The translations under genes and the position numbers were made by a program. A DNA stretch of 64,000 bases from a virus (lineage: Duplodnaviria; Heunggongvirae; Uroviricota; Caudoviricetes). How positions within the stretch are numbered: position 1 is the stretch's first letter; every line of letters starts with the position of its first letter. The stretch lies in IMG/VR virus record IMGVR_UViG_3300035696_001272. One strand, 5' to 3'. Below are positions 3,069-61,774 of this stretch, piece after piece. The notes below the pieces were generated by a model. That model was not told the DNA's origin, did not search any database, and was given only the letters and a program-made list of their open reading frames with translations.

Positions 3069-3094
3069 TATACTGGATATACCTTCATTTTAGT

Positions 3095-42796: not shown

Positions 42797-43777
42797 ATGG
42801 GCGACAGCGACATCTTAAGTTATACACCAGGTCAACTGGTTACCTTCTACAAGGAAGTCAAAGACGGCTATGATCAACGTACTGATGATGGTTACATCCC
42901 AGTTGTTGCTAGAGTCATTTATCCTGGTCTTACTTTGGCTCCAGGCTATCCACTCAACATGGTTCGTGTGGATGTTGGTCTTTATTATTTCCAATTAACT
43001 CTGCCCTCAGGTGCGTCAGCCATAGGAACTTATTTCGTTGATATCATATTCCTTGATCCGAATACTGGACAGTTATCCAACGATTCTCGACAAATTGTTG
43101 TGACGGCACCATATGGTAACTATGCGGCCTCTTCGTCCAGCGGTAGTCCTACTCCGGTTCCTCCAACTCCTCCACCAAGTGGTGCAACTGGTGTAGCTGG
43201 TGGTGATTTGGCCGGAATGTATCCAAATCCTATCGTTGCTCAAATTCAAGGCATTCCTGTTTCGCCACTCATCCCAACACTTAACCAGTTCTTGCAATGG
43301 AACGGTACGGCTTGGACACCAACTAATTTTCCAGCAGTTCCACCTGTTTTGGATTTGTCATTTCTCTTTGCAAATAATATCGCTACACAAACTATTGCTC
43401 CTGGTGGGGCACAAGTTCAATTTGGTGGAGCATTTGGTTCAATTGAAAATGTTGGAGATCTAATTGCGGTTGAAGGAAACACAACGTTCACGCTTCAGGG
43501 AGGTCACACTTATCGTTTCAGAGGTAACCCAGCCCTCGTAAGTGTAGCTTGTTCTTGGCAGTGGTGGAATGAAACTTTTAATACTGGATTTGGTACAATT
43601 GGCGCCAATATAAGTCCTGCTTTGAGTACAGATGCTGTGGCTTATGCAACGGTTCCTGAAGGAACTGTATACACCATATCATTTAGAATTATTTATGCGC
43701 CTAGTGGTGTTACCGTGGGAGGTAGCACAGTAGGCGGTTTCGTTGGACCATTTATACAAATTGAATCATTGGGTTAA
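42797..43777 (+). CDS. virion protein: Ig-like N-domain plus fibre segment
   Basis: YTPGQ.VTF..EV.DGY.QR.DDGY domain; AGGDLAGMYPNP motif shared with 49166. Confidence 0.7.
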   Translation: MGDSDILSYTPGQLVTFYKEVKDGYDQRTDDGYIPVVARVIYPGLTLAPGYPLNMVRVDVGLYYFQLTLPSGASAIGTYFVDIIFLDPNTGQLSNDSRQIVVTAPYGNYAASSSSGSPTPVPPTPPPSGATGVAGGDLAGMYPNPIVAQIQGIPVSPLIPTLNQFLQWNGTAWTPTNFPAVPPVLDLSFLFANNIATQTIAPGGAQVQFGGAFGSIENVGDLIAVEGNTTFTLQGGHTYRFRGNPALVSVACSWQWWNETFNTGFGTIGANISPALSTDAVAYATVPEGTVYTISFRIIYAPSGVTVGGSTVGGFVGPFIQIESLG

Positions 43778-43817: not shown

Positions 43818-44342
43818 ATGAGCGGTAATTTGTACTATACGCCAGGACAAACAGTTACTTTCTTTCAGGAAGTGCTGGACGGATATCGTCAACGTGTTGA
43901 CGATGGCTATACTCCAGTTATTACTCAAATACTAAATCCAGCTTTCGTACAACTCTCAGGTTATCCTCAAAATATGATTCGATATGATGTTGGTCTGTGG
44001 TATTTCCAATTTAAACTTCCTAGATTGGATAGACATGATCGTGGTCATGATCATTACAGACATTTTGAACATCAAAGACCTGATCTTAAATGTGTAGGTA
44101 GAGATTTTAGAGATGATAGAGATTTCGTGTTCAGGACGCCCAACACACAAGGAACGAGTGAAAGTTTTGGCAATTGTGACGGATATGTGATAGGCACCTA
44201 TCTTGTTGACATTGCCTATCAGAATCCAGATACTGGGCTTATTGTTAATGATAAAAGACAAATAATAGTCTCCGCTCCATTTGGTATGTTCAATGTTTTG
44301 AGCGGCAAAAGATTTGGTTGTTTTCCGGGGAGGGCATGGTGA
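43818..44342 (+). CDS. paralog of the 42797 N-domain with His/Arg/Asp-rich insertion
   Basis: Colinear with 42797 except for an insertion of about 50 aa. Confidence 0.7.
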   Translation: MSGNLYYTPGQTVTFFQEVLDGYRQRVDDGYTPVITQILNPAFVQLSGYPQNMIRYDVGLWYFQFKLPRLDRHDRGHDHYRHFEHQRPDLKCVGRDFRDDRDFVFRTPNTQGTSESFGNCDGYVIGTYLVDIAYQNPDTGLIVNDKRQIIVSAPFGMFNVLSGKRFGCFPGRAW

Positions 44343-45238
44343 GTATCAAAGCACGAGGTGAGTTAATCGACGTAACAGATCAGGTTAACTTAACTGTACA
44401 ATTTAAAGACGCAATGGGTAACCCCGTCAACACGGATTCCTTCCCAACAATTTCTATTGTTCAACCAAGCGGCTTGGTGGCCCTAACTCCAACATCAGCG
44501 GGAGTGCAGCAACTAGGCGAGGGTCTCTATTCCTACGTTTATAGTGTTCCTATCAACGGCCCTTATGGTGTTTTCAACGATATTTGGACTGGTTTCATCA
44601 ACGGATTCAGAGTAGAGACTACTTTCAGCTTCGTAGTTACTCACACACAAGTTCCAGCCATTAACACCGATGGTTTTGCCCACTTGGGAGATGATGTTGG
44701 CTTTCATTACTCTCAGTGTGCCATAATCAATGTTAACAAACTTATCAAGTCTCTTAGAGCCAGACTCAACAGTGCTGGTAAAGCCAAGTCAGTCGATGCC
44801 TATGGTAATACGGTCTACGTTGACTGTGATATTTTCTCAGTAGACATGCTAACTACATTTATTGCTACTGCACTATGGGATTTTAACCAAGTTCCTTACT
44901 TTACTTTCTTCCGATTCGAAGACGATGACTTCGTTGATCAGTTTGGAGAGATTTTGGTAGAAGGAGCCACTCTATACGCTCTAGCTTCCAAAGCTTTGAT
45001 AGAACGTGGTCGTGAATTTCAATTGACAGACAATGGCTTGAACTTCAATCCTCCAACTGTCAGCGAATTGATGCAAACGCAGGTAAGTTCGTTATTGACC
45101 GTATATTGGGACAAACTCAAATACATTAAGAATAGCTTGCGTCCAGCTCCAAGAGGATTGGGTGTCTTCAGCATGAACAGTGCCATCAATCCAGCCTTTG
45201 CTAGATTGCGTCATTTGAGAGCCAGAAGATTGATTTAA
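44336..45238 (+). CDS. putative neck/head-tail adaptor protein
   Basis: GGAGG RBS before 44336; Ig-like N-domain then helical domain LVEGATLYAL...FQLTDNGLNF; called from position and pattern. Confidence 0.55.
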   Translation: MVSIKARGELIDVTDQVNLTVQFKDAMGNPVNTDSFPTISIVQPSGLVALTPTSAGVQQLGEGLYSYVYSVPINGPYGVFNDIWTGFINGFRVETTFSFVVTHTQVPAINTDGFAHLGDDVGFHYSQCAIINVNKLIKSLRARLNSAGKAKSVDAYGNTVYVDCDIFSVDMLTTFIATALWDFNQVPYFTFFRFEDDDFVDQFGEILVEGATLYALASKALIERGREFQLTDNGLNFNPPTVSELMQTQVSSLLTVYWDKLKYIKNSLRPAPRGLGVFSMNSAINPAFARLRHLRARRLI

Positions 45239-45612
45239 TCAGCAGAAGATTTGTAAGTTTTGGTACCAGTTACGGATTCACACTCTGCTTCAACACCTTC
45301 GGAAATAACCCACTCATCAGTCATGTAAGATACGCTAATTCCTGAGAACCAAACATTGGTTGCTCGAATAGTTTCTACTTTATCTTCCACAATAATAATA
45401 TGTACTGGGTATATTTGGGAGTCTACGTGGAATTTGCCATCCTTGAATGTTTCATTCAATCTTTCACGAGAGAGGCGCATTCTGGTTATTTCTAATTTAG
45501 CATTAACAGATGCTGGTTCATTCTCTTGAACAAACTCTTTAATAGTAAGAGATTCAATTGCACCAAGTGCTTGTTTATCACTGGTAAAGATAAGTATATT
45601 TGTAGAAGTCAT
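45235..45612 (-). CDS. truncated paralog of the tail tube protein
   Basis: Colinear blocks with 61061: TNILI, GAIESL/GAVQSM, SQIYP/AQVYP, NVWFSGI/NVWISGI, EWVIS/DWVIT. Confidence 0.8.
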   Translation of the reverse strand: MTSTNILIFTSDKQALGAIESLTIKEFVQENEPASVNAKLEITRMRLSRERLNETFKDGKFHVDSQIYPVHIIIVEDKVETIRATNVWFSGISVSYMTDEWVISEGVEAECESVTGTKTYKSSAD

Positions 45613-45626
45613 ATACTACAAATATA

Positions 45627-46244
45627 TCATCTTTCTGTTTTTCTGCGTTCGTAAGTATGAGTTAAGACTTCTTGCAATGGATTGCCGGCAATCTTCTCGA
45701 ATATTTCTGCTTTCTGTATCAGCAAAGCATTTTTATCAAAAGCAGGCCCAGCTAATGGGAAGGTAACGAAGATTCTATCGTCGCCATGATCGCCTCCCCA
45801 CAATACAAGTTCTGCAATTGAGAACTCCAATGGATGAAACTCAGTCTCCTTGGGCTCTTCCTCAGAGTATGATAAGGTAACATGTGGTTTGAAATCTTTA
45901 TGGACCTTGGAGAATTCGATTTTCTGGTCATCAAACTCTTTTGCTAACTTATCACGTAGCTCATGTAGTTTTTCAGACTCAATTCTAGTAATGACTGGTA
46001 CTTTACCTTCTGGATTTTTAGGGAAACAAGTCACTTTGCTCATCTTAGCTATGAATGGATGAAATTTAGAGACCACTTTGTAGGTAGCTTCCAAAGATTT
46101 AGAGATTTCAGAGATAGGCCATTCGTCGCCAAAATATAGGAGGGTAATGTGTAGTTCCGATAGGCTACTTTTTTCACCGGGAACCTCAATTTGCGACAAT
46201 AAACGACCTGTTTCGTGTGGGATACGTATTCCTAGAAATGCCAT
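45627..46244 (-). CDS. 2H phosphoesterase (LigT/ThpR/Acb1-like)
   Basis: Two HxT motifs (LHITLLY, PHVTLSY) with typical spacing. Confidence 0.88.
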   Translation of the reverse strand: MAFLGIRIPHETGRLLSQIEVPGEKSSLSELHITLLYFGDEWPISEISKSLEATYKVVSKFHPFIAKMSKVTCFPKNPEGKVPVITRIESEKLHELRDKLAKEFDDQKIEFSKVHKDFKPHVTLSYSEEEPKETEFHPLEFSIAELVLWGGDHGDDRIFVTFPLAGPAFDKNALLIQKAEIFEKIAGNPLQEVLTHTYERRKTER

Positions 46245-46280
46245 GTTAACCTTCTAATATGACTATTTAACCATACTTGT

Positions 46281-47171
46281 ATGGCCGAGCAAAAAGAAAA
46301 GAAAATTCCGCTCCCTGCGGTCAAAAAATTACCTTATCAGTCACTAAATCGCATGATTAGAAAAATGCGAGAGTATCTAAAGCAAAATGATGTGGTGAAA
46401 AAGGTATTTGACGAGTATGACGTGGACATCAGTGAAATTGATGAAATACCAATGAGGTTTGGTGAGCTAGACGTATCAGCCAAGACTGATCATGGTGTCA
46501 TTATCTTCAATTACAAACTTTTGACTGATGCAGATTTTTTCAAAGACTTTTCATATGGCGTTCATGAAATGACTCACTGGCTTCAACAAACTACTGGTAA
46601 CAAAGCCACCAAGAGTTCTGACGATGGAAGCTATCTTGATAATCCATATGAGCAAGAAGGATTTCAAAACCAAGTCGAATATATTGCCGAGCAATTTGGT
46701 GAAGATGAAGCGGAGCAATACGTAGACGATTTGTTAGAGCATCATGAAGTGGAATCCAAAAAGGAAATCGAGGAAAAGAAAGATACCTTGATGTCAAAGA
46801 TAGCAAAAAAGAAATTAGTTACCTTTGACTTTGATGCCACTCTATGGGATTACAATGCAAGACAATTTATGGAACCCACTATTAATCTTTTGAAACGTTA
46901 TTTGTCTGAGGGCTATAAAGTGGCTGTAGTCACACATAGAAATAGTCAAGAAGCAAAGCAGGCAAGGCATATGCTGAATAAAATTGGCATTAATGTTCCC
47001 GTTTTATCATGTCCTAGTACTGACATAACATCTCACCATTTGAACAAGAGTGAGGCACTTCTGGCTTTGAAGCCGATTATCCATTATGATGATCGTCCTC
47101 AAGATTTGAAGGAAGCCATATTGGGCGGAATTAAAGTTGTCAAGCCACCTGCACACATACGTAATCAATAA
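46281..47171 (+). CDS. HExxH metallopeptidase-like domain fused to HAD-like domain
   Basis: VHEMTHWLQ...NPYEQE, then VTFDFDATL (DxD), VVT, K and YDD HAD motifs. Confidence 0.7.
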   Translation: MAEQKEKKIPLPAVKKLPYQSLNRMIRKMREYLKQNDVVKKVFDEYDVDISEIDEIPMRFGELDVSAKTDHGVIIFNYKLLTDADFFKDFSYGVHEMTHWLQQTTGNKATKSSDDGSYLDNPYEQEGFQNQVEYIAEQFGEDEAEQYVDDLLEHHEVESKKEIEEKKDTLMSKIAKKKLVTFDFDATLWDYNARQFMEPTINLLKRYLSEGYKVAVVTHRNSQEAKQARHMLNKIGINVPVLSCPSTDITSHHLNKSEALLALKPIIHYDDRPQDLKEAILGGIKVVKPPAHIRNQ

Positions 47172-47185
47172 AATAGAATTATAGT

Positions 47186-49135
47186 ATGGTCCACTACGCT
47201 AATCCCATATTAAGTGGTTTAAATAACGCTTTATCACTGGGTGACGGATATTCTGTCACCTTGCAGTGGTTTATTGCCTATCCCGTTAATCCGAACAACA
47301 AAATAGCGTACCATATTTACTACTCCACAGCACAAGATACCGTGTTTGATGAAGGCGTCAAATTTGTGGTCATCGATGGCTCGGTAACAGCCAACATTGT
47401 TGATCTGACGCCAGGTCAAGACTATTGGTTTTCGATGAGACCGGTCGAATATGACCCAACTGTCATTACTTTCCTTCAAAATTTGCCGATCGCACATGAT
47501 AACTTGAGATTTTATCCAAGCAGTATGTTGCGAAGGGATATGACTGCCACAGATTTGATCGTTCCTCTTCTTGATGTAGCCGGATTTCCAAGTTCTGGTA
47601 TTGTCCAAGTCGGAATTGAACTAATTCAGTACCTAGCCGTCGATCCAATCAACCAAAATTTGATTGTACCACCTGGCACTAATGGTACGCCTGCACATTT
47701 GGCCCTACAATCCAATAATCAATACTATTTACCAGGCCCGGACAACGTTGGACAAGGAAGTTTGGCTGGTATAACACTAACCAGTACCAACGCGCCAAAT
47801 GAAACATTCAAAATCCTTTGCTGCGCTGTTGATACAGATGGTTACGGCAATGTTACCACCAAATTCGAAGCTATCGGCACTGTTACTGGCAGTATTCGTG
47901 ATCAATACTCCAATGTAATCACTTGGGAAGCCAATGGCCCATCAATACCAAACGACACTCTGGAATTTTCAGTTGTAGAGACTGCGCAATTCCAGGTTGG
48001 CGATTATTTCACCGTACAAACAATTGGTGCCACTATGGGACTTGGTGGAGGTCGAGGTTTCAACTTTACTCCGATTACTATGCACACAGTTTCGGGTTAT
48101 GACGGCTATCACACTTATAGTCCAATTGTTAGCATGATTGCTATCGAAGAAGATCTGCGTTGGGATAATATTTATGCCTGTCAAGTACGTTTTGAGTATC
48201 CTAACTTTCCATTTACTGTCGTAGATGGCTACCGTCAAGTTCCGATAGACTATTTGTCCACAGATGACTCTGCTGCTGATGCTGCTAACGTTACATTCCC
48301 AATGTACGACTATGCAGGCTATCACAGAACTGATCCTGTGCAACTCTTGGACGGCACTTGTGTCGGAAGCTATATCGGAGGAGAAATGGGATGTATTGAT
48401 GCCTATGGCAACTACAACATCTATCGTGGATTCTCTCTACAAGATCAAAACACGCAGAGAGAAGATGTTCTCTTATCTGTCACTGGACAACCAGCCGTTC
48501 TTATCAAGAGAGTTCAAACGGGCATCACTTGTTCTTGTTATCTAGCATCTAGTGAGTATCCAGACGATCGTTGTCCATTCTGTTATGGTACCAAGTTCGT
48601 GTTTGGTTATGAACAATACTTTAACCCACGTCAATCAGACGGTCGTATCCAAATTAGACTTGGACCAACTGCTGAAAATCTTAAAATGCACGAAGCTGGT
48701 TTGGAATCTGAGTTCCCTCTAGATATTTGGACATTGACTGTGCCAACTATCAAAACCAGAGATGTATTAGTTGTATTCGATCAAGATGACAACGAATCAT
48801 TCCGATACGAAGTTTCAGACGTTATCCGTAACCAAACTATTCTAGGTTTGGATGGCGGTCAGCATCTTAGAACTTTTAGAGTTAGAAAGACCGATCCGAT
48901 CTATCAGATTCGTATCTTTAGAAATACTGCTGACTTCCCAAGTACACTAAATACCAGTTTGGCATTCGTACCAGGAATTCCGCCTCATAGCCACACAGTT
49001 GTCGTAAATGAAAAAGTTTTGTCGGTAAGCCAAATCAATCAAACCACTGGACTTACGCAGGGACATAACCATCCAATTGTAAATGGTGTTGTTCAGACGG
49101 TTTTGGGCCATACTCATCAAATAATCTTGCCATAA
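47186..49135 (+). CDS. multidomain neck/head-closure protein
   Basis: FN3-like N-terminus (YHIYYS...LTPGQDYWF), sheath-like domain, GQPAVLIKR..TGITCSC...CPFCYGT, His-rich C-terminus. Confidence 0.55.
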   Translation: MVHYANPILSGLNNALSLGDGYSVTLQWFIAYPVNPNNKIAYHIYYSTAQDTVFDEGVKFVVIDGSVTANIVDLTPGQDYWFSMRPVEYDPTVITFLQNLPIAHDNLRFYPSSMLRRDMTATDLIVPLLDVAGFPSSGIVQVGIELIQYLAVDPINQNLIVPPGTNGTPAHLALQSNNQYYLPGPDNVGQGSLAGITLTSTNAPNETFKILCCAVDTDGYGNVTTKFEAIGTVTGSIRDQYSNVITWEANGPSIPNDTLEFSVVETAQFQVGDYFTVQTIGATMGLGGGRGFNFTPITMHTVSGYDGYHTYSPIVSMIAIEEDLRWDNIYACQVRFEYPNFPFTVVDGYRQVPIDYLSTDDSAADAANVTFPMYDYAGYHRTDPVQLLDGTCVGSYIGGEMGCIDAYGNYNIYRGFSLQDQNTQREDVLLSVTGQPAVLIKRVQTGITCSCYLASSEYPDDRCPFCYGTKFVFGYEQYFNPRQSDGRIQIRLGPTAENLKMHEAGLESEFPLDIWTLTVPTIKTRDVLVVFDQDDNESFRYEVSDVIRNQTILGLDGGQHLRTFRVRKTDPIYQIRIFRNTADFPSTLNTSLAFVPGIPPHSHTVVVNEKVLSVSQINQTTGLTQGHNHPIVNGVVQTVLGHTHQIILP

Positions 49136-51294: not shown

Positions 51295-51319
51295 TACTTT
51301 TTAGTTATATATGGTGAAT

Positions 51320-54300
51320 ATGAGCAATTATCCAAATGCTTTTGATGACGACAGCACACTTCCAGCTGTAAATGACAATATCGATCAGATTGGTGGCGAT
51401 GCCATTAATGCGCTGAGAGATGCTGTTATGCAAATTGAGATGACTCTTGGAATTAATGTCCAAGGTACGACTCCAAATTTGGCAACTCGTCTACTCACCC
51501 TAATTAACCTAGATGGCAGCCCAAATATTGCTACCTTCACCAGCCTAGGTCTAGTAACCCTTCCAATCTTTAACTTTCAAGTTGCTGATAATGCTGGTAT
51601 CGTAGAATCTAAGCTCACTCTAGACTATCCAACACAAACTCTTTATAACTACATTAGAGACCTATCCAGAGATGTCAATTTGGCACTTGGCTGGATCTCA
51701 GTTACTGGTGTTAAACTAGAGCCTCATCTTATTGGTGTTATCTATCGCCACAATCTATTACAAATTGATGTTGGAGAAAGTCCAGCCCAATTTTTGAATA
51801 ACGTCTTTAGAGTTGCTAGAAATAATACAGACGCTTATACTTTAATCAGTGATATCAACAATGAACTATTGGCTCACCAATGGGCAGATGGTTCGCCATT
51901 CGGCACTATTCAGAATATTACAACCAACAACGGTTCAACATATCCATCCAATTATGCTCACGTAGCTAGCGGTATCTATGTTAACACTAGCAGATTTGCA
52001 GTAATTCCTCAAACGGACACTGATGCACAATCAATATTTGAATACTTTGACAGCAACAGTCTCTTCCTCTTGGGTACTAGAATCCAGAACCTTTACGGTA
52101 ATGGCATCTCCAAGCACTCCACCTCTTCTAGCTTAACAACTGATGGCTATGGACAGCCACTAGTTCCAGTTACTGCGGCCATTGCGTTCTTGAGAGGCAT
52201 GGGTAATAACAGTATTCCAATCGATGATATCGCTATCGGTGATGATATCATTCAATTCCTGCCATCTTCTTCAGTAACCAGCAATAACTCATTCGATGAG
52301 CAATTCGCTCTCGTTAAAGTTGGTGACATTATCAGAGTTAACTATGCTGGTGATGGATACAATATAGAAGTTCCGTTCGTCATCTCTGAGAAAAAATACA
52401 TTCAAGGTGGTGGCAACAAGATTTTCATTGTCAGAATTGCTGGCAAGAATATCATGTATTCTCCAAATGCTACAGCTCGCATCGATAGAGATCTGTACAA
52501 CATCAACAAGTATGGTGTATTGGCTGTTGCTTCAGGTGCAGCTGCCAACTCTTCTGGAACTTCTCTAACAGGACTTATCCCAAGCTTGATTGTAGCTGCT
52601 CCAAGAGGAGCCCAAGCTCTAGGCGTCAATTTTAGTCCGGATCAATTCAACGAATCGCACTATCTGTTGTATCTAGCTTTGTTCACTGACGGTAATCCTC
52701 TAGATGGATACACCATACTACCAGGAATCGACGTCACTGGAAACCGAGGTACTACACCAGGTTCCTATACACTAGATTCTATCGTCACCGCCACTAACAA
52801 TGCTTTTAGACAGCCTGGCTTCAACTATCGATTCATTGCCTTCGAATATCAAGGCGAATTCGGTATCATGTTGGCCGATTCCATAAACAATGCTTCGTTC
52901 TCAATAATTAGCGCTGTGGTCAATGGAAGTGGTTATGATCAGGCCAATACACAACTAAACTTCCCTAACAACGTTATCGATGTCTTTCCAGTTACTGGTA
53001 CTGTGGCGTTGGATCCATTGGGTTTTGGTCCTGCCAACGCGGGTATCGCAAGCCCACCATTCCAGATGTCATACATCACGGCTGAACAAGCTCAGTTCCC
53101 AACTATCTTGTTGCCACCACTTAGACGTAATAACTACTATGTTGATGGAACCGAACGTGAATTGCTCAACTTAGACGTTGGCCAGGTGTTGGACACCTAC
53201 GGTGATGGTTATTGGGTTGCTACTGTTGATGGTTATTCAAACAACCCAGGTCCACCAGGACATACTACGGTTACTTACAATATCCCACTAGATTTGTCAG
53301 CTTCCGGATTGAAGATAGGCAAGACTTTAATTGTCCAGCAATTAGGAAACAATCTAGGATTGGTCAACTACGGTCGTTTCATTATCCAGAATGTTACATT
53401 CAGCTGCTGTCCACCAATTGAAACTCAAATCACTGTATATGACGGTGTTCATGCCACCGGCGTTTCACCATCCATAGTCGCTCCAATCGGATCCCAAGTA
53501 GCTATCTACTTCAGTTCATCTTCTGTATCTTTCAATGCTGAGACTGCCACGGATTTCTCTCCAGTTAGCGCTCCATTCAAGAGACACTTCGAACTTTACG
53601 TTGATGATAATGGCAACACTTACACTCACGAAAGAGGCAGACTCAGTATTACTGGTAATGTCGTTGTTAACGGAGTAACTCTATACAACAGTTTGCCACA
53701 GTTGGGACAACTTGATATGGTTAGCATCTCTCCAAAGTTGAGAGGATATCAATTTGGTTCTGTTAACAAAATTACGCTACAAATATCCAGCTTCAACTCC
53801 ACTACCGGTATCCTTACTGCTAATTTGGCTGAGTTTAATGGAGGCCCATTCTCAAGACCGGGCCCAGTCACTTCTGGTAAGGTCGGTGAAGTAATCAAGT
53901 TCTACGATGAAACGAACATCGATTATATCGAAGTCATCTTTGAGTTTGGTAATACTATTCCAACTTTCTCTAACCAATATATTGATTTCCAGTTGTTCCC
54001 AAGCCTAGCCTTGGATGGCGAGATCATGATACTCGCTTCTTGTCAAGAGCGTACCGATACGAATATCGTTGACCACATTGTAGATCTACGACAGTTCGGA
54101 AATATTACTGAAAACGAACTAAGCACTTCTGCTCTCAATTTGATATCGGCATCTGACAGACTGTTACATTTCAATGGTGTAATCAGAGGATTTGATGCTA
54201 CAGTGGCAGGGGGTTATGCAACCAGCGGATTACTTACTCTAACAGGTGGATTGGCTCTGGCCAATGGTGATTTGCTGTCCATTAACGATCAAATATTCAC

Positions 54301-57229
54301 TGTACCACCACTTCAAGAAACATATCTCTCCGTTATGTACCCGATCAACTACGCTTTGTGCGTTAATTCGGGTGGTGAGCTAGTTACTATCGTACTCACA
54401 GACTATGACCCTGTTTTGGGAACACCAAATGCTCCAACCAGAGTGGTCACTGTCACTAACGTAGTTTCTTCTACCTCATACGAAGTCGATTCCAACACTT
54501 TCTCTTACATCCTCAACAATAGAAAGGATTTGACAGTCCTTTACATTGTCTCGTCAGTAGTAACTGGAACTGGAAGTTCAGCAACTACTGCGCTCACTAT
54601 CCGTGATGTTAGAAGATTCGTTAACGACTCTGATTCCAGCGTTCCTGCCGTTTTGACTAGCGACAACTCGCAAGGTAACTTCAAGACACTCGCTGCCGCT
54701 CTAAATTGGCTCAAATTTAACGCTGCTTTCCAAGACCAGCTACAGGTTAAGGGCGCATTCGCAATATCTACCGATCCTGGTTTGAATTTCCCGCTGTACA
54801 TCAGTGGTGGTGGTTCAACAGCAAGCTTAACATTCAATACTACCATGAATATGTCAAACGTTACATTCAACAATGTAACTGTAGTATTCAACGGAGCACT
54901 AACTGCAACTAACGTCACCTTCAATAACTGCAATATCACTTTCAATGCAGCAACTACACTAACTAATGTCATTATCGACCCGTCTGTAGTTAATGTCGCC
55001 GGTTTGGTGACCGTTTCACAAACATCAATCCTAAATTCGACTGTCAATGTCAGCGTTACACAAGGATTTGCCCTTGGTTCAACCAACACTTTCGCTGGCT
55101 CGACTTTCAACTACACTGCCAACCCAGTAGGTGGCGGCGGTTACAGCACTTCTGATTTGGTCAATGCCGGATCAGGTATGATGTATGCCAACGTTACTAC
55201 TTCACTTGGTGGATTGACCGTTAGAAAGTGTACTTTCAACAACACTCTAGCCGATCACTTTCCATTCATTAGCTTGCAGCTCGGTGGAGCCATGGCCCCA
55301 TTTGCTTACAGCGCAATTGTTCGTGGAATAGATATCGACGACAACCAATTCAACAACCTGTTCGTTGGTAATGATCGCAGAGCCGTAATCGCTATTACAT
55401 CTACTATCACCGCAGCTCCTCCAGCCAGCAGTTACCCGGCGTTTCCAAAATTGGTGGATGTCAGCATTACTGACAACGTTTGCAACTATGATCAGATGAT
55501 CCTATTGTCCACCGTTAGAATTGCCGGTTCGCCAATCACTGGCTCTATGTTGACCTGTGTGGACTGTACCATTCAAGACAACGTTTGCGGTGTAATTGGT
55601 TACATGACTGCTTCCGATGTAATTTCCAGCGGAGACAACTCGGAGACTGCCAATCTTGGAGCTATCCGAGACAAGATTGACCAGCTGGTTATCCAACACA
55701 ACACCTGTAAACTGATTACCAACTTGGATTCAGTAGGACAGTACATCGCCTTCAATACTTCTGAACAAGCAACTCCTGTAGATTGGGTCAAGGTCGGAAC
55801 TGGTGCTGTTACCATAGAGAAAAATGCAAGCAGCTGGATTCTAGTCGGAGCTTCAAATTGGAGCCAAAACACTGCAGTCTATACAAATCTTAATGGTGAG
55901 GGAGCAATCATTTCCAAGAACAGGCTCTCAGCATACAACTCTGCCTTCTTGAATGCTTATCAAGACGTCAACAACAGCGGACTCGTACCTCCAAATATTG
56001 CTATCCATCTAAGATACGATGCTTATCAGCAATCTGATTTTAACATTACCCAAAGCGTCATCAATGATAATATCATTGATTCTAGAACTTGGTTAGAGTC
56101 GGTAGGTTTCGTTTACAACACCTTTAACTATGCTATCGGTATCAAGTGTGAAAATAGCGCTAATATAATCAACAACACCATAGATCGTCCAGGACGTTCT
56201 TCTACTATGATTCTATTGGGCGGCACTGCCTCCGGTGGACCAATTATCAGATGCAATGGAAACATACTGAGCCGTGGAAGCACCATCATAGCAGCTTATT
56301 TCCAGGGCATCAACAATACCGCTATTAACAATGTTAATATCACCGGCAACACTCTTGATAGTCCAACTATCGATGGAAGCACTACCACTGTAGGCATTAA
56401 CATCTCTCCTTACTGGACATTCCACACCAACGTCAATCAAACAGCTTACCTATCTATTTCTGCAACTGATTACCAGAATTACGCATCAAGTCTTGGTCTG
56501 TCAAATGAAAATACAGCTAGCGGTGCAGTTGGAGCAGGTGGTGGACAAGGTACTTTTGGAACTGACTATAACGGAGCTTTCTATATAGATTCTAGCAACG
56601 GATTCCAAGTTGCCAGGGTAGTTGGATCTCTTAGCTTTGGTCTTGGAACAAGCTATGGTCCAGCCGCCGAGTACATGATTGTTTCTGATTACACTTACGT
56701 GCCAGCTGCTGGTGAAAGAAACTACAGCTTTACTGTTCCACTAGATCACGGCTTGCCAATGGGCGCCAAGATCATTTCTGTCACCATGGGTATTTATTTG
56801 ACACAGAACGGAGCAACCTTGGATATTTCTGCCGGTACAAATAACCAGTACACGCTGAGCTTGATACCTTATCTCCCAACCGCAACTGCCAACTCTGCAA
56901 ACGGAGTAGCAGATGTCAAGAGTAACATAAGGCTACTTGGCGGTATAACTGACGAAGCTTTGAATATCTTCGGACTTCTACAAAGTACTTTCTTTGTCGG
57001 TAGCTCTACCACATCAAATCAAAGACAAATATCAGATTTGACCAGCGCAACTCAATACATGACTATTACAGCTGCGCAGACTTCCGCAAACCAACAATGG
57101 TATACCGTGGATGGTCTCCACAGAATTGCAGCAACCTTTGATTTCAACTATAAGAGAATGGGTGGTACCACAGCCGCGCATTTCGTAACCTGGTACCTAT
57201 CTCCAATAGTTGTACAATACAGATGGTAA
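51320..57229 (+). CDS. giant virion structural protein (about 1970 aa) with beta-helix-like C-terminal half
   Basis: MSNYPNAFDDD...INALRDAVMQIE.TLG N-terminus typical of phage tail proteins; NVTFNN-type beta-helix repeats; five DGY. Confidence 0.7.
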   Translation: MSNYPNAFDDDSTLPAVNDNIDQIGGDAINALRDAVMQIEMTLGINVQGTTPNLATRLLTLINLDGSPNIATFTSLGLVTLPIFNFQVADNAGIVESKLTLDYPTQTLYNYIRDLSRDVNLALGWISVTGVKLEPHLIGVIYRHNLLQIDVGESPAQFLNNVFRVARNNTDAYTLISDINNELLAHQWADGSPFGTIQNITTNNGSTYPSNYAHVASGIYVNTSRFAVIPQTDTDAQSIFEYFDSNSLFLLGTRIQNLYGNGISKHSTSSSLTTDGYGQPLVPVTAAIAFLRGMGNNSIPIDDIAIGDDIIQFLPSSSVTSNNSFDEQFALVKVGDIIRVNYAGDGYNIEVPFVISEKKYIQGGGNKIFIVRIAGKNIMYSPNATARIDRDLYNINKYGVLAVASGAAANSSGTSLTGLIPSLIVAAPRGAQALGVNFSPDQFNESHYLLYLALFTDGNPLDGYTILPGIDVTGNRGTTPGSYTLDSIVTATNNAFRQPGFNYRFIAFEYQGEFGIMLADSINNASFSIISAVVNGSGYDQANTQLNFPNNVIDVFPVTGTVALDPLGFGPANAGIASPPFQMSYITAEQAQFPTILLPPLRRNNYYVDGTERELLNLDVGQVLDTYGDGYWVATVDGYSNNPGPPGHTTVTYNIPLDLSASGLKIGKTLIVQQLGNNLGLVNYGRFIIQNVTFSCCPPIETQITVYDGVHATGVSPSIVAPIGSQVAIYFSSSSVSFNAETATDFSPVSAPFKRHFELYVDDNGNTYTHERGRLSITGNVVVNGVTLYNSLPQLGQLDMVSISPKLRGYQFGSVNKITLQISSFNSTTGILTANLAEFNGGPFSRPGPVTSGKVGEVIKFYDETNIDYIEVIFEFGNTIPTFSNQYIDFQLFPSLALDGEIMILASCQERTDTNIVDHIVDLRQFGNITENELSTSALNLISASDRLLHFNGVIRGFDATVAGGYATSGLLTLTGGLALANGDLLSINDQIFTVPPLQETYLSVMYPINYALCVNSGGELVTIVLTDYDPVLGTPNAPTRVVTVTNVVSSTSYEVDSNTFSYILNNRKDLTVLYIVSSVVTGTGSSATTALTIRDVRRFVNDSDSSVPAVLTSDNSQGNFKTLAAALNWLKFNAAFQDQLQVKGAFAISTDPGLNFPLYISGGGSTASLTFNTTMNMSNVTFNNVTVVFNGALTATNVTFNNCNITFNAATTLTNVIIDPSVVNVAGLVTVSQTSILNSTVNVSVTQGFALGSTNTFAGSTFNYTANPVGGGGYSTSDLVNAGSGMMYANVTTSLGGLTVRKCTFNNTLADHFPFISLQLGGAMAPFAYSAIVRGIDIDDNQFNNLFVGNDRRAVIAITSTITAAPPASSYPAFPKLVDVSITDNVCNYDQMILLSTVRIAGSPITGSMLTCVDCTIQDNVCGVIGYMTASDVISSGDNSETANLGAIRDKIDQLVIQHNTCKLITNLDSVGQYIAFNTSEQATPVDWVKVGTGAVTIEKNASSWILVGASNWSQNTAVYTNLNGEGAIISKNRLSAYNSAFLNAYQDVNNSGLVPPNIAIHLRYDAYQQSDFNITQSVINDNIIDSRTWLESVGFVYNTFNYAIGIKCENSANIINNTIDRPGRSSTMILLGGTASGGPIIRCNGNILSRGSTIIAAYFQGINNTAINNVNITGNTLDSPTIDGSTTTVGINISPYWTFHTNVNQTAYLSISATDYQNYASSLGLSNENTASGAVGAGGGQGTFGTDYNGAFYIDSSNGFQVARVVGSLSFGLGTSYGPAAEYMIVSDYTYVPAAGERNYSFTVPLDHGLPMGAKIISVTMGIYLTQNGATLDISAGTNNQYTLSLIPYLPTATANSANGVADVKSNIRLLGGITDEALNIFGLLQSTFFVGSSTTSNQRQISDLTSATQYMTITAAQTSANQQWYTVDGLHRIAATFDFNYKRMGGTTAAHFVTWYLSPIVVQYRW

Positions 57230-58197: not shown

Positions 58198-61029
58198 ATG
58201 GCAAATATACCAGGCGCAACAAATGCCTTACCAGGAGTATTTACAAACGTAATAACACAGTCAAGTGGTGTTGCGATTCCTGGAGGTTCACGTGTTACAG
58301 CCATGATTGGCCAAGGTTCTACCAATGAGACCTTAGTTGCCCAGGCTTTAGGTGGTGGTCAAGACGGACTAAACCCAGAATACACAAGTAGCACAGGCTC
58401 TGACGGCAGACACTTTGCTACAGCAAATTTTCCCCTAGTTTCTAACCGTACTACTATATTCAAGAATGGTATTCCACTAGTTGGATTTGAATTAGGTCCA
58501 ATTACACCAACTACAACTTTTAGTGATATTTACGATTATCAACTCGATCCTACTACCGGACATATTTTGTTACAGTCTGCCCATCTACAAGATCAGGGCG
58601 GAACTTTTTATGTACCACTCAGCACCAACGTTGGTTTGGGTACTTTAAACAACCTGACACTAGAAGATCCAAATGCTCCACCAGAGACTTGGACCATTCG
58701 TTGTGTTGGCGTTCAAAGAAATGCCATGAACCAACCAATTGCCGGAACTGCAGATTTCCAAGCTTTCGGAACTGTCTCTGGCTCTCCACTAGATGCAAAT
58801 GGTAATCCAATTATCTGGATTGCAAATGGCGAGACCGTTACTAACGGAATTCTAAGCTTCAGCATTACCGAAACACAAGTAGGCGGTATGGCTGTTTCTC
58901 CATTCCGTCAAGGTGACGCATTTACTATCATCGTCGCTAGCGGCGTTCTAGTGCGTGGTGACTCTTTGACTACAAATGAGATTCCAGTAAACAACATCAA
59001 CTTGCCAACTGTTCTCACAGGAATTTCCGATGCAACCAATTTCTGCGGACCAGCAAGTTTGACAAACAACTTGAGCTTAGGCGCTCAAATGTTCTTCGCA
59101 AACGGAGCTTCTTCCTTGCTCGCTCTACAAGCGGCCCCACCATTGCCAAGAAGAACATCTTATGTTTTGGATCCAAGCGTAAATGCTCTATCCACAAATC
59201 CAGATGACTTTACCTTCCCTTTCCCAATTGGTGTTGTTCCAGATTTCAACTCTGACATCCATGTCTTCGTAACCAATCCAGCCACTCAAGTAGAAACTCA
59301 GGTACTACCTAACAAGTTTACCTATTACACCCTGAATACTGCTGGCCAGCCAACTACTCAAGAATTCGTCTTCAGTAACCTTCAGCCTCCAGCAGGATAC
59401 TCCTTCGATTATACTGTCGTCAACAGCTTCGAAACCGTGGTTAGCGAATTTGACGGTTACATTGGTAGACTACCAGCTTTCGGAACGACAGCAGTCTTCA
59501 ACTCACCAAGTGTTGAATTTGATTTAAGCTATGTCGGACAGTTACTAAAGGTTATCGACTCTAACAACAGAGCCAACGTTGGTATCTTCAACATCACTGG
59601 TGTTTCCAGCGGTCAATTGACTATCCAGACCATCACAACTGGTGAGCCTGGTGATCCAATTCCATATCCAACTCCAAGCGGCTTCCCCGATTTCGTTCAG
59701 GATCCTCTTCCACAAACATTTGAACTCATCTATGTCCCAACTGGTTTGCCAGTGGTGGGCGGATCTGGTACAGATGGTACATTGGTTGGTTTCACAAACA
59801 CCGCACAAGCTACGCTACACAGCACCGCTGTTAACTTCAGTACCTTCCCTAACTTGATAGCAGATTACAGACTGCAAATCAATGGATCAACTGTTGGAAA
59901 CAATGGTCTATACGATATCATTGGCTACAACTCTCTAACCAACACTTTGACAATACAAATGGCCTTTGTTAGCGAGAGCGGTCTGAGATATGAAGTCCTA
60001 GATCCAGATCTCACCAGCACTTACTTGGTTTTGAACCACAACGTTGTTCCAAACGGCAACCAACTTAGAGTTACTATCGTTGACGCCAGAGACGCAGCTT
60101 TCTATGATGCTGGCTGGGTCAATGCTCTCGAAGTTCTAACAACTGTCGAATGCGATATCTTGGTTCCACTACCAAATCAAACCATCACAGTTATTTTCCA
60201 GAACTGCTTGAGTCATTGTATCACAATGAGCAATATTGCGAACAGAAAAGAAAGAGTGTTGTTCATCGGAGCTATCCAAGGTTTGACACCAGCCAACTTG
60301 ACTGGCGCACAACTGGCCGCAGTTGAAGATTTGGGTATCCTGGAAGGAATTCCTAACAACGATATTACTAGCACTTTGGCTGGTAACATCCAGGACATTG
60401 CTAACTACTCTGTACCAGATGCTTATGGCGAGACATTCAGAGCCGTTTATTTCTATCCTGACCAGATCGTGGTACAGGCTGGCAGTGAAAACGTGCTCAT
60501 CGATGGATTCTATATCGCAGCTGCTGCCGCAGGTTATGCTAACGCGGACCTCAACTTGGCAAATCCATTCACCAACAAGGTGTTCAGCGGATTTACCATC
60601 CTCAGAAACAAGACCTTCTCTACTATGGTCTTGGAGCAATTGGCTCAAGCAGGCGTCACTACTCTACAACCAGTCGCTGGTGGTGGAAGAGTGGTCTGGG
60701 GTATTACCACTTCACAAAGTGGATTCCCAGAGGAACAAGAAATCTCTATCGTCTTCATCAGAGACAGAGTTGCTAAGGTATTGCGTTCTGGATTCGCAGG
60801 CTTCATTGGAACTCCACAAACCGCCAATACACCAATCGCTTTGAATACAGAAGCTGTGCTCTTGCTCAACTCTCTAGTTACCCAAGGATTGATTGCTGGT
60901 TACAAGGGATTGACAGTAACACAAGATCAAGTAGACCCACGTCAATTCGATATTGCTGTTAGTGTTCAGCCAATTTATCCACTCAACTGGATCTATATCG
61001 TAGTGAATGTTGGTAATTTGGGAATATGA
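58198..61029 (+). CDS. contractile tail sheath protein with large insertions
   Basis: PGVFT N-terminus; C-terminal VWGITT...EISIVFIRDRV...VQPIYPLNWIYI. Confidence 0.88.
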   Translation: MANIPGATNALPGVFTNVITQSSGVAIPGGSRVTAMIGQGSTNETLVAQALGGGQDGLNPEYTSSTGSDGRHFATANFPLVSNRTTIFKNGIPLVGFELGPITPTTTFSDIYDYQLDPTTGHILLQSAHLQDQGGTFYVPLSTNVGLGTLNNLTLEDPNAPPETWTIRCVGVQRNAMNQPIAGTADFQAFGTVSGSPLDANGNPIIWIANGETVTNGILSFSITETQVGGMAVSPFRQGDAFTIIVASGVLVRGDSLTTNEIPVNNINLPTVLTGISDATNFCGPASLTNNLSLGAQMFFANGASSLLALQAAPPLPRRTSYVLDPSVNALSTNPDDFTFPFPIGVVPDFNSDIHVFVTNPATQVETQVLPNKFTYYTLNTAGQPTTQEFVFSNLQPPAGYSFDYTVVNSFETVVSEFDGYIGRLPAFGTTAVFNSPSVEFDLSYVGQLLKVIDSNNRANVGIFNITGVSSGQLTIQTITTGEPGDPIPYPTPSGFPDFVQDPLPQTFELIYVPTGLPVVGGSGTDGTLVGFTNTAQATLHSTAVNFSTFPNLIADYRLQINGSTVGNNGLYDIIGYNSLTNTLTIQMAFVSESGLRYEVLDPDLTSTYLVLNHNVVPNGNQLRVTIVDARDAAFYDAGWVNALEVLTTVECDILVPLPNQTITVIFQNCLSHCITMSNIANRKERVLFIGAIQGLTPANLTGAQLAAVEDLGILEGIPNNDITSTLAGNIQDIANYSVPDAYGETFRAVYFYPDQIVVQAGSENVLIDGFYIAAAAAGYANADLNLANPFTNKVFSGFTILRNKTFSTMVLEQLAQAGVTTLQPVAGGGRVVWGITTSQSGFPEEQEISIVFIRDRVAKVLRSGFAGFIGTPQTANTPIALNTEAVLLLNSLVTQGLIAGYKGLTVTQDQVDPRQFDIAVSVQPIYPLNWIYIVVNVGNLGI

Positions 61030-61060: not shown

Positions 61061-61774
61061 ATGACTTCGAGTTCAACTTATCCACAAACAGGTTCAACCT
61101 TATACGTACCAGGCGGAAGTACTACAGTTGGTGCAATTAACGTAACTGCTACATCAATTGCTACTAACATATTGATTACAGTTAGAAATCCAAATGCTCC
61201 AGGTGGTTATGTACCAGTAGGTGCAGTTCAGTCGATGGCTATTTCCGAAAGACGTCCACTTAAGATGATTGATGAAGTTGGAACAGATGGTCATATTGAC
61301 TCTACTCCAAATCAATCTACAAACATCACTGGAACTTGCCAGAGAGTAAGATTCGATCAATTAAGAGTTGCTGAAGCTTTTGATAGAAGCTTTTTGCATG
61401 CATCAGCTCAAGTTTATCCTTTTGATATTATCATTTTCGATAAACAAAAATTTGTTACAGGTAGCCAAATTCAAACGGTTATTAAGAACGTTTGGATCTC
61501 TGGTATTGATTATACTTACCAAGTTACTGACTGGGTTATCACAGACAGCATGACCTGGGAAGCAGAAACAATCTTTAGCATGACCCTTGGTGGCAACCCA
61601 GCTGCTCAAGGTGGATACAACCAGATTCAGTCCTTCCAGCAAGGCAATCCAGCTTGGATTGAAGTTGCAACTGATATGGGTCTCAATGGTAGAAGAGGTT
61701 CTTTGGATGCTGCCGGACTTATCGATATTGGTTCTGCCAACTACGGTACTGTCAATACAACCAACATCTTCTAA
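61061..61774 (+). CDS. tail tube protein
   Basis: Follows sheath; VGAVQS...IDEVGTDG...PFDIII...KNVWI. Confidence 0.8.
   Translation: MTSSSTYPQTGSTLYVPGGSTTVGAINVTATSIATNILITVRNPNAPGGYVPVGAVQSMAISERRPLKMIDEVGTDGHIDSTPNQSTNITGTCQRVRFDQLRVAEAFDRSFLHASAQVYPFDIIIFDKQKFVTGSQIQTVIKNVWISGIDYTYQVTDWVITDSMTWEAETIFSMTLGGNPAAQGGYNQIQSFQQGNPAWIEVATDMGLNGRRGSLDAAGLIDIGSANYGTVNTTNIF

Follow-up and report, generated by a model that had tools for sequence, protein, structure and literature searches.

In proteins of the tail-tube fold, a long β2-β3 hairpin and an N-terminal arm (N-arm) make the ring-to-ring contacts. Paralogs with this fold commonly form initiator or terminator rings, examples being gp48, gp54 and gp3 of phage T4 and the tube initiators Afp5 and Pvc5. 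Such paralogs stand outside the bulk tube and are conserved core genes of the tail or baseplate module. Tail-tube proteins also trigger bacterial immunity: the NADase DSR2 is a sensor of the monomeric tube core and cannot be activated without loop 1 of the tube protein (β2-β3) (PMC10981675). A phage inhibitor of this tube-sensing enzyme, DSAD1, has a fold without known relatives and binds a different conformation of DSR2 (PMC10981675), and it serves here as a model of how a small accessory phage protein can stop a tube sensor from firing. In the literature on tube paralogs and decoys we found neither a truncated accessory copy of a tube protein nor a tube-mimic anti-defence protein.

The locus described here contains, apart from its full-length tube gene, a real and expressed-looking accessory gene that encodes only the β-sandwich core of the tube fold, hereafter called the mini gene. 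The stretch of DNA studied (the window, 64 kb) corresponds to bases 133698-197697 of a 251,895-bp IMG/VR viral contig with a CheckV completeness of 59%. An identical mini protein is encoded on a 476,653-bp contig, and the genome of the source phage is about 480 kb in size. Related contigs reach 420-506 kb, which indicates a widespread clade of uncultured phages of around 0.45-0.5 Mb. Searches of GenBank phages by tblastn with the mini and with the tube gave zero matches, and scans of IMG/VR for relatives of the mini found none. The sheath alone was matched among GenBank phages, in Bacillus phage G and Eggerthella phage LE2-3. Phage G is the nearest cultured phage found, albeit a remote one, with 29% sheath identity over 145 residues. 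The three genes that the comparison of mini and tube depends on are as follows.

45235..45612, minus strand: the mini tube-fold gene, an open reading frame of 125 aa (P0001), homologous to the tube and with an AF2 model of tail-tube fold.
61061..61774, plus strand: the tail tube protein, 237 aa, the full-length paralog, directly after the sheath gene and with a model that matches the phage 812 tube.
58198..61029, plus strand: the tail sheath, 943 aa, with matches to PF17482, PF04984 and phrog_279 and a remote match to the phage G sheath gp178.

The assignment of the 237-aa protein as the tail tube follows from its position directly behind the sheath and from its AF2 model (pLDDT 78), which matches the phage 812 tail tube with a TM score of 0.76-0.80 by target, an rmsd of 2.6-3.6 Å and an E value of 2e-8. 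Two small genes and then a tape-measure-like gene lie on its 3' side. The mini and the tube share 27% identity over 139 columns (BLASTP E 6e-15), and this alignment recovers every one of the blocks that the original prediction had listed (TNILI/TNILI, GAIESLTIKE/GAVQSMAISE and others). Profile methods agree that the similarity is significant. Profile-profile comparison of the two proteins with hhalign gives a probability of 99.75% and an E value of 2.8e-27, and an HMM built from close homologs of the mini, run against the 984 open reading frames of the 252-kb contig, retrieves only the mini itself and the 237-aa protein (E 6.8e-16; next best 0.54). A weak profile match links the mini to the phage 812 tube (E 0.024).

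The AF2 model of the mini has a pLDDT of 90.4 and shows the tail-tube β-sandwich fold. Its structural matches include the phage 812 tube (Foldseek E 2.5e-4), the tubes XkdM and Milano (Z 7.6 and 7.3, respectively; VIA), the Atlas tube clusters (TM 0.68-0.70), and Pa193, PVC and the DSR2-bound SPR tube. The model also resembles Hcp, the tube of type VI secretion (Z 6.0-6.3), but this identity was rejected, the gene being in a phage genome that has a sheath, tube and tape-measure module. Strand for strand, the mini corresponds to residues 34-175 of the tube. What it lacks is the 33-residue N-arm (tube residues 1-33), the 62-residue C-extension (176-237), a 7-residue insert, and much of the β2-β3 hairpin, where the 16 residues at positions 27-42 of the mini replace 31 protruding residues (64-94) of the tube, a shortening of about 15. 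The absence of part of the hairpin and of both terminal arms, as proposed from the sequence, is therefore borne out. Against the solved 142-aa phage 812 tube, about 16 hairpin residues are also missing from the family profile. Real tubes can be as short as about 117-130 aa (Mu, Milano), so small size alone is no proof that a protein cannot polymerise; the distinguishing mark of the mini is its missing hairpin and arms, not its size. It is a reasonable inference that the mini would be unable to stack like the tube. A predicted complex of tube and mini scored 0.19, against a mark of 0.32, a value that speaks neither for nor against binding.

Residues common to the mini and to tubes across the family are G17, F56, Q66, P69, N86 and W88, together with the less strictly conserved R44-x-R46. 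The most variable segment of the mini is loop 27-37, the remnant of the hairpin, which also carries insertions and deletions, followed by the C-terminal tail. When conservation among minis was compared with that among tubes, the residues conserved among minis proved to be core residues that tubes conserve too, and no mini-specific binding surface stood out.

With the Phi812-type tail tube (PDB 8q01/8r5g) and with the tube of the window itself, the mini has the β-sandwich and detectable homology in common. It differs from these in having no N-arm, no C-extension and a hairpin about 15 residues shorter, and also in that it is not adjacent to a sheath gene, is not conserved among relatives and evolves much faster. 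Like the T4 and Afp5/Pvc5 paralogs, it is a tube-fold paralog outside the bulk tube; unlike those core genes, it is cargo that comes and goes. The mini also differs from DSAD1 in fold, and no homology between the two was seen. The separation from the tube gene had been put at 16 kb on the opposite strand; the strand is as described and the measured distance is 15.4 kb. The gene had also been called antisense, which holds for its inverted strand but not in the sense of lying antisense to a gene, as it merely overlaps by 4 nt the convergent 3' end of the neighbouring 306-aa gene. The immediate surroundings of the mini gene comprise the following features.

45627..46244, minus strand: a 2H phosphoesterase (LigT-like; PF13563, E 2.8e-12), co-oriented with the mini and 14 nt upstream of it.
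44318..45238, plus strand: a 306-aa protein, the conserved left flank, 62-93% identical in related loci except locus L083.
46281..47171, plus strand: the conserved right flank, a 174-aa domain joined to a HAD phosphatase domain (PF08282; phrog_415 polynucleotide kinase).
45613..45629, minus strand: a conserved upstream element, TGATATATTTGTAGTAT, which ends at the ATG of the mini and overlaps the stop codon of the upstream gene.

The mini is hence the second gene of an inverted pair, headed by the 2H phosphoesterase and held between the 306-aa gene and the gene for the 174-aa domain. Against Acb1 the 2H phosphoesterase scores 25.5 bits, which is under the cut-off of 27. The left flank reaches only 44% identity in the outlier L083, and the 174-aa part of the right flank is 44-85% identical in related loci. 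The HAD fusion in the right flank was seen here and in locus L034 only; the relatives examined have a gene of 174-181 aa. A scan of metagenomes with the 306-aa flank recovered 78 loci of the clade. Both flanks are present in 44 related loci (L003, L005 and L008 included), 41 of which were found without reference to the mini.

Across these 44 loci the flanks lie between 5 and 4465 nt apart, and the slot is empty in six (≤195 nt between flanks). The commonest cargo is the 2H phosphoesterase, present in 26 of the 44 slots; other slots hold a SET-domain gene, an AAA_33 (P-loop) kinase, a HAD domain or one of several families without assignment. Three of the kinds of cargo seen at this hotspot (45239-46280 in the window, and the same place in L011-L088) are RNA-end-repair-type enzymes. 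Only one of the 41 slots found through the flank alone holds a mini (L019, HMM E 1e-32, with E > 0.02 for every other open reading frame in the slots), a count that covers the slot and leaves room for a copy elsewhere in the genomes of relatives. Other open reading frames of 97-133 aa at the position of the mini were considered as diverged minis and rejected (HMM E > 0.02), one of them being a SET domain.

Where the mini is present, its company varies. The 2H enzyme is followed directly by the mini in the window, in L003, in L089 and in a JGI contig, whilst in L005 an additional gene of 94 aa separates them. The L019 slot contains the 2H enzyme, the mini and a 263-aa gene, that of L008 contains the mini alone, and in both L006 and L007 a 150-aa gene of no known family is found upstream of the mini. 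A functional link between the 2H enzyme and the mini was considered and dropped, as the enzyme is present in six of eight mini-bearing and 23 of 40 mini-less loci (Fisher p 0.45), and L008 has a mini without it.

The slot is also where the mini parts company with its neighbours in rate of change. Relative to the window, the flanking genes of L008 are 90%, 80% and 71% identical and the mini only 37%; for L006, 93% identity compares with 49% for the mini. The closest pair of loci is L003 and L005, with a dS of 0.7-1.2 for all five genes compared. Between these two the mini has a dN of 0.217 and an omega of 0.20, as against 0.024-0.077 and 0.03-0.06 for its neighbours (the 2H enzyme, the two flanks and a 649-aa gene), meaning that its dN is 3-9 times theirs. 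Tubes in the closest relatives are 84-93% identical. Across all computable pairs the omega of the mini falls between 0.12 and 0.33, close homologs keep a length of 117-143 aa, and 42 columns are invariant among eight mini homologs. An omega of about 0.2 indicates that the mini is under purifying selection and is not decaying. Neutral decay of the homologs, which would have undermined the original prediction, is contradicted by this value, by the conserved length and by the pLDDT of 90.

The mini was predicted to have a GATATA motif of its own, and we see this motif at the commonest spacing found in the contig. The 17-nt element TGATATATTTGTAGTAT is near-identical in the window and in L003, L005, L006 and L008, irrespective of the gene upstream, and GATATA is conserved in four of the six mini-bearing loci read. 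The motif has no overall enrichment in the window (26 sites, 31 expected). Its placement in the contig is far from even: 31 of 119 sites lie ≤60 nt upstream of the starts of the 290 called genes, where about 4 would be expected (Poisson 2e-17), and of all permutations of these six letters GATATA ranks highest. The motif is most often spaced 14-17 nt from the ATG, and the interval lacks a Shine-Dalgarno sequence, as seen for 11 genes including the mini; for the tube gene the distance is 29 nt. This pattern suggests that GATATA may be a phage promoter element giving a short-leader or leaderless mRNA. Example sites in the window are at 3076, 40930, 45623, 61032 and 61821.

The mini belongs to a much larger group. 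An exhaustive profile search gave 139 clusters at 50% identity, of which roughly 25 are tube-type (about 185-255 aa, with a 32-residue hairpin and both arms) and more than 100 are short (105-160 aa). In the family tree the tubes form one supported clade and the short forms occupy many deep branches; the minis from the slot are nested in a clade whose 29 members are arm-less short forms, and the remaining tree is star-like. Neither the mini nor the short family members tested matched Pfam or PHROGs. With phrog_985, four of the five tested long-hairpin members matched (three full-length and one 161-aa form), and none of the tested short-hairpin members did. The short tube-fold forms are a widespread family without prior annotation, comprising at least 100 clusters at 50% identity. 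The tube itself has 975 homolog clusters at E ≤ 0.001, with 60-93% identity among the 120 matches listed, compared with seven clusters for the mini in the same kind of search. Two distant short members sit among small genes with no sheath in view. One contig with a short family member (L009, carrying P0020) probably derives from another very large phage; its short tube-fold protein, of 143 aa, has an EF-Ts homolog (PF00889) and a Kelch β-propeller gene as neighbours, among small open reading frames.

What, then, does the mini do? Its position and distribution do not fit a standard part of the tail, be it the bulk tube, an initiator or a terminator. Core tail genes are not found as this gene is, 15.4 kb from the sheath-tube module, on the opposite strand, in a variable slot and in one of 41 loci; likewise, its distribution across slots and the presence of two family members in the 252-kb contig do not agree with the core-gene status of minor tail proteins. 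A variable hotspot and fast evolution are instead what is found for accessory cargo, and the combination is the pattern of counter-defence or competition cargo. Since the slot in which the mini lies is mostly filled otherwise in relatives, the protein is probably no part of the tail but a soluble mimic of the tube. It would be unable to build a tube, and in the infected cell it would pass, in soluble form, for a tube subunit that has yet to assemble. The likeliest target would be a host immune sensor of monomeric tube protein, which the mimic would occupy without triggering it. The DSR2 NADase is a model for such a sensor: it binds the core of the tube protein and fires only if the long loop is present, so that a loop-less core could occupy it silently. 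If the mini is a mimic, host immunity seems to us a likelier target than tail assembly, and we tentatively propose, at somewhat less than an even chance, that the mini is a non-polymerising tube mimic used in counter-defence. Several observations speak against this proposal. The fold of DSAD1, the known inhibitor of DSR2, is unrelated, the minis conserve the core residues of tubes and no surface of their own stands out, and no anti-defence protein of this kind came up in the literature searched. In addition, slots without a mini are compatible with a copy elsewhere in the genome, and the linkage to the 2H enzyme is not significant.

An action on the phage's own tail assembly, as a cap, a chaperone holding monomers, or a regulator of length or timing, was the main suggestion of the original prediction and now appears unlikely. 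Homology to the tube and retention of the family-wide core residues would suit it, as would the GATATA upstream of both the mini and tube genes, although 31 genes of the contig have this motif. On the other hand, the slot has no mini in 40 of 41 independently found relatives, the structural genes of which are conserved, and in the window the gene lies outside the tail module in a hypervariable position. Moreover, the partner of a highly conserved tube is expected to change slowly, so the 3-9 times faster divergence of the mini next to tubes that are 84-93% identical weakens the cap and chaperone ideas in particular. Less probable again is a minor virion component, that is, a second tube-fold structural protein such as Bacillus phage G has. 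The family profile does match both gp180 and gp179 of that phage, and initiator and terminator rings are commonly made of tube-fold paralogs; yet those of phage G have retained the long hairpin and follow the sheath in tandem, whereas the mini is hairpin-less, sits in a cargo slot on the opposite strand and is missing in most relatives. The accessory, fast-evolving pattern would also fit a weapon against co-infecting relatives, in which the mini acts as a poison subunit that blocks the tail assembly of a competitor, and relatives with different minis do co-occur in one sample (3300078418 yielded both L005 and L008, whose minis share 45% identity). The tubes of the clade are so conserved, however, that such a poison would hit the tube of its producer too, and no feature for self-protection was seen, which makes this reading quite improbable. 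Patchy distribution and a high substitution rate might, finally, point to a functionless remnant of a tube duplication drifting to loss. With purifying selection in every computable pair, a maintained length, invariant columns, a confidently predicted fold, a conserved upstream element and a family that is both deep and broad, we give this last reading hardly any credence.

The proposal of an immune mimic can be extended from the mini to the family, with a little more hesitation. The short members could be hairpin-less tube-core mimics that bind or soak up DSR2-like sensors without activating them, and would then represent a class of anti-defence proteins derived from a duplicated and trimmed trigger protein; we see this as a possibility worth stating, and a slightly more doubtful one than the role proposed for the mini. 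Trimmed tube copies in accessory slots are in any case a concrete, testable candidate for structural mimicry as counter-defence. If the mini acts on assembly instead, it would provide the study of tail assembly with a tube subunit that naturally does not polymerise. Either way, annotation of these short genes in the genomes of huge phages should avoid the name 'tail tube protein'.

Bacillus phage G is the nearest cultured phage found to have tube paralogs of the family to which the mini belongs, and is likewise about 500 kb in size. In this phage (L091, 109467-110785), gp179 and gp180 are tandem tail-tube paralogs right behind the sheath gp178, and are annotated only as 'virion structural protein'. 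The family profile matches gp180 with an hhalign probability of 98.1% (E 6e-14) and gp179 with one of 93.6% (E 2e-7). Unlike the mini, these two proteins retain the long hairpin and are encoded within the tail module. Descent of the mini from a gp180-like second tube was considered and set aside: the tube profile and the family profile both match gp180 better than gp179, so this comparison says nothing about descent.

Some further features of the window were recorded. The 174-aa gene upstream of the 306-aa gene (43818-44342) is paralogous, at 38% identity, to the N-terminal part of the 326-aa gene that precedes it (42797-43777). Two genes ahead of the sheath, at 51311-57229, is a 1972-aa open reading frame for which PHROGs gave no match. 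Residues 119-244 of the sheath (58552-58929) and residues 168-277 of the 649-aa protein (47687-48016) share a domain of about 120 residues at 38% identity (E 3e-17), which suggests that the 649-aa protein is probably also a surface protein of the tail or neck.
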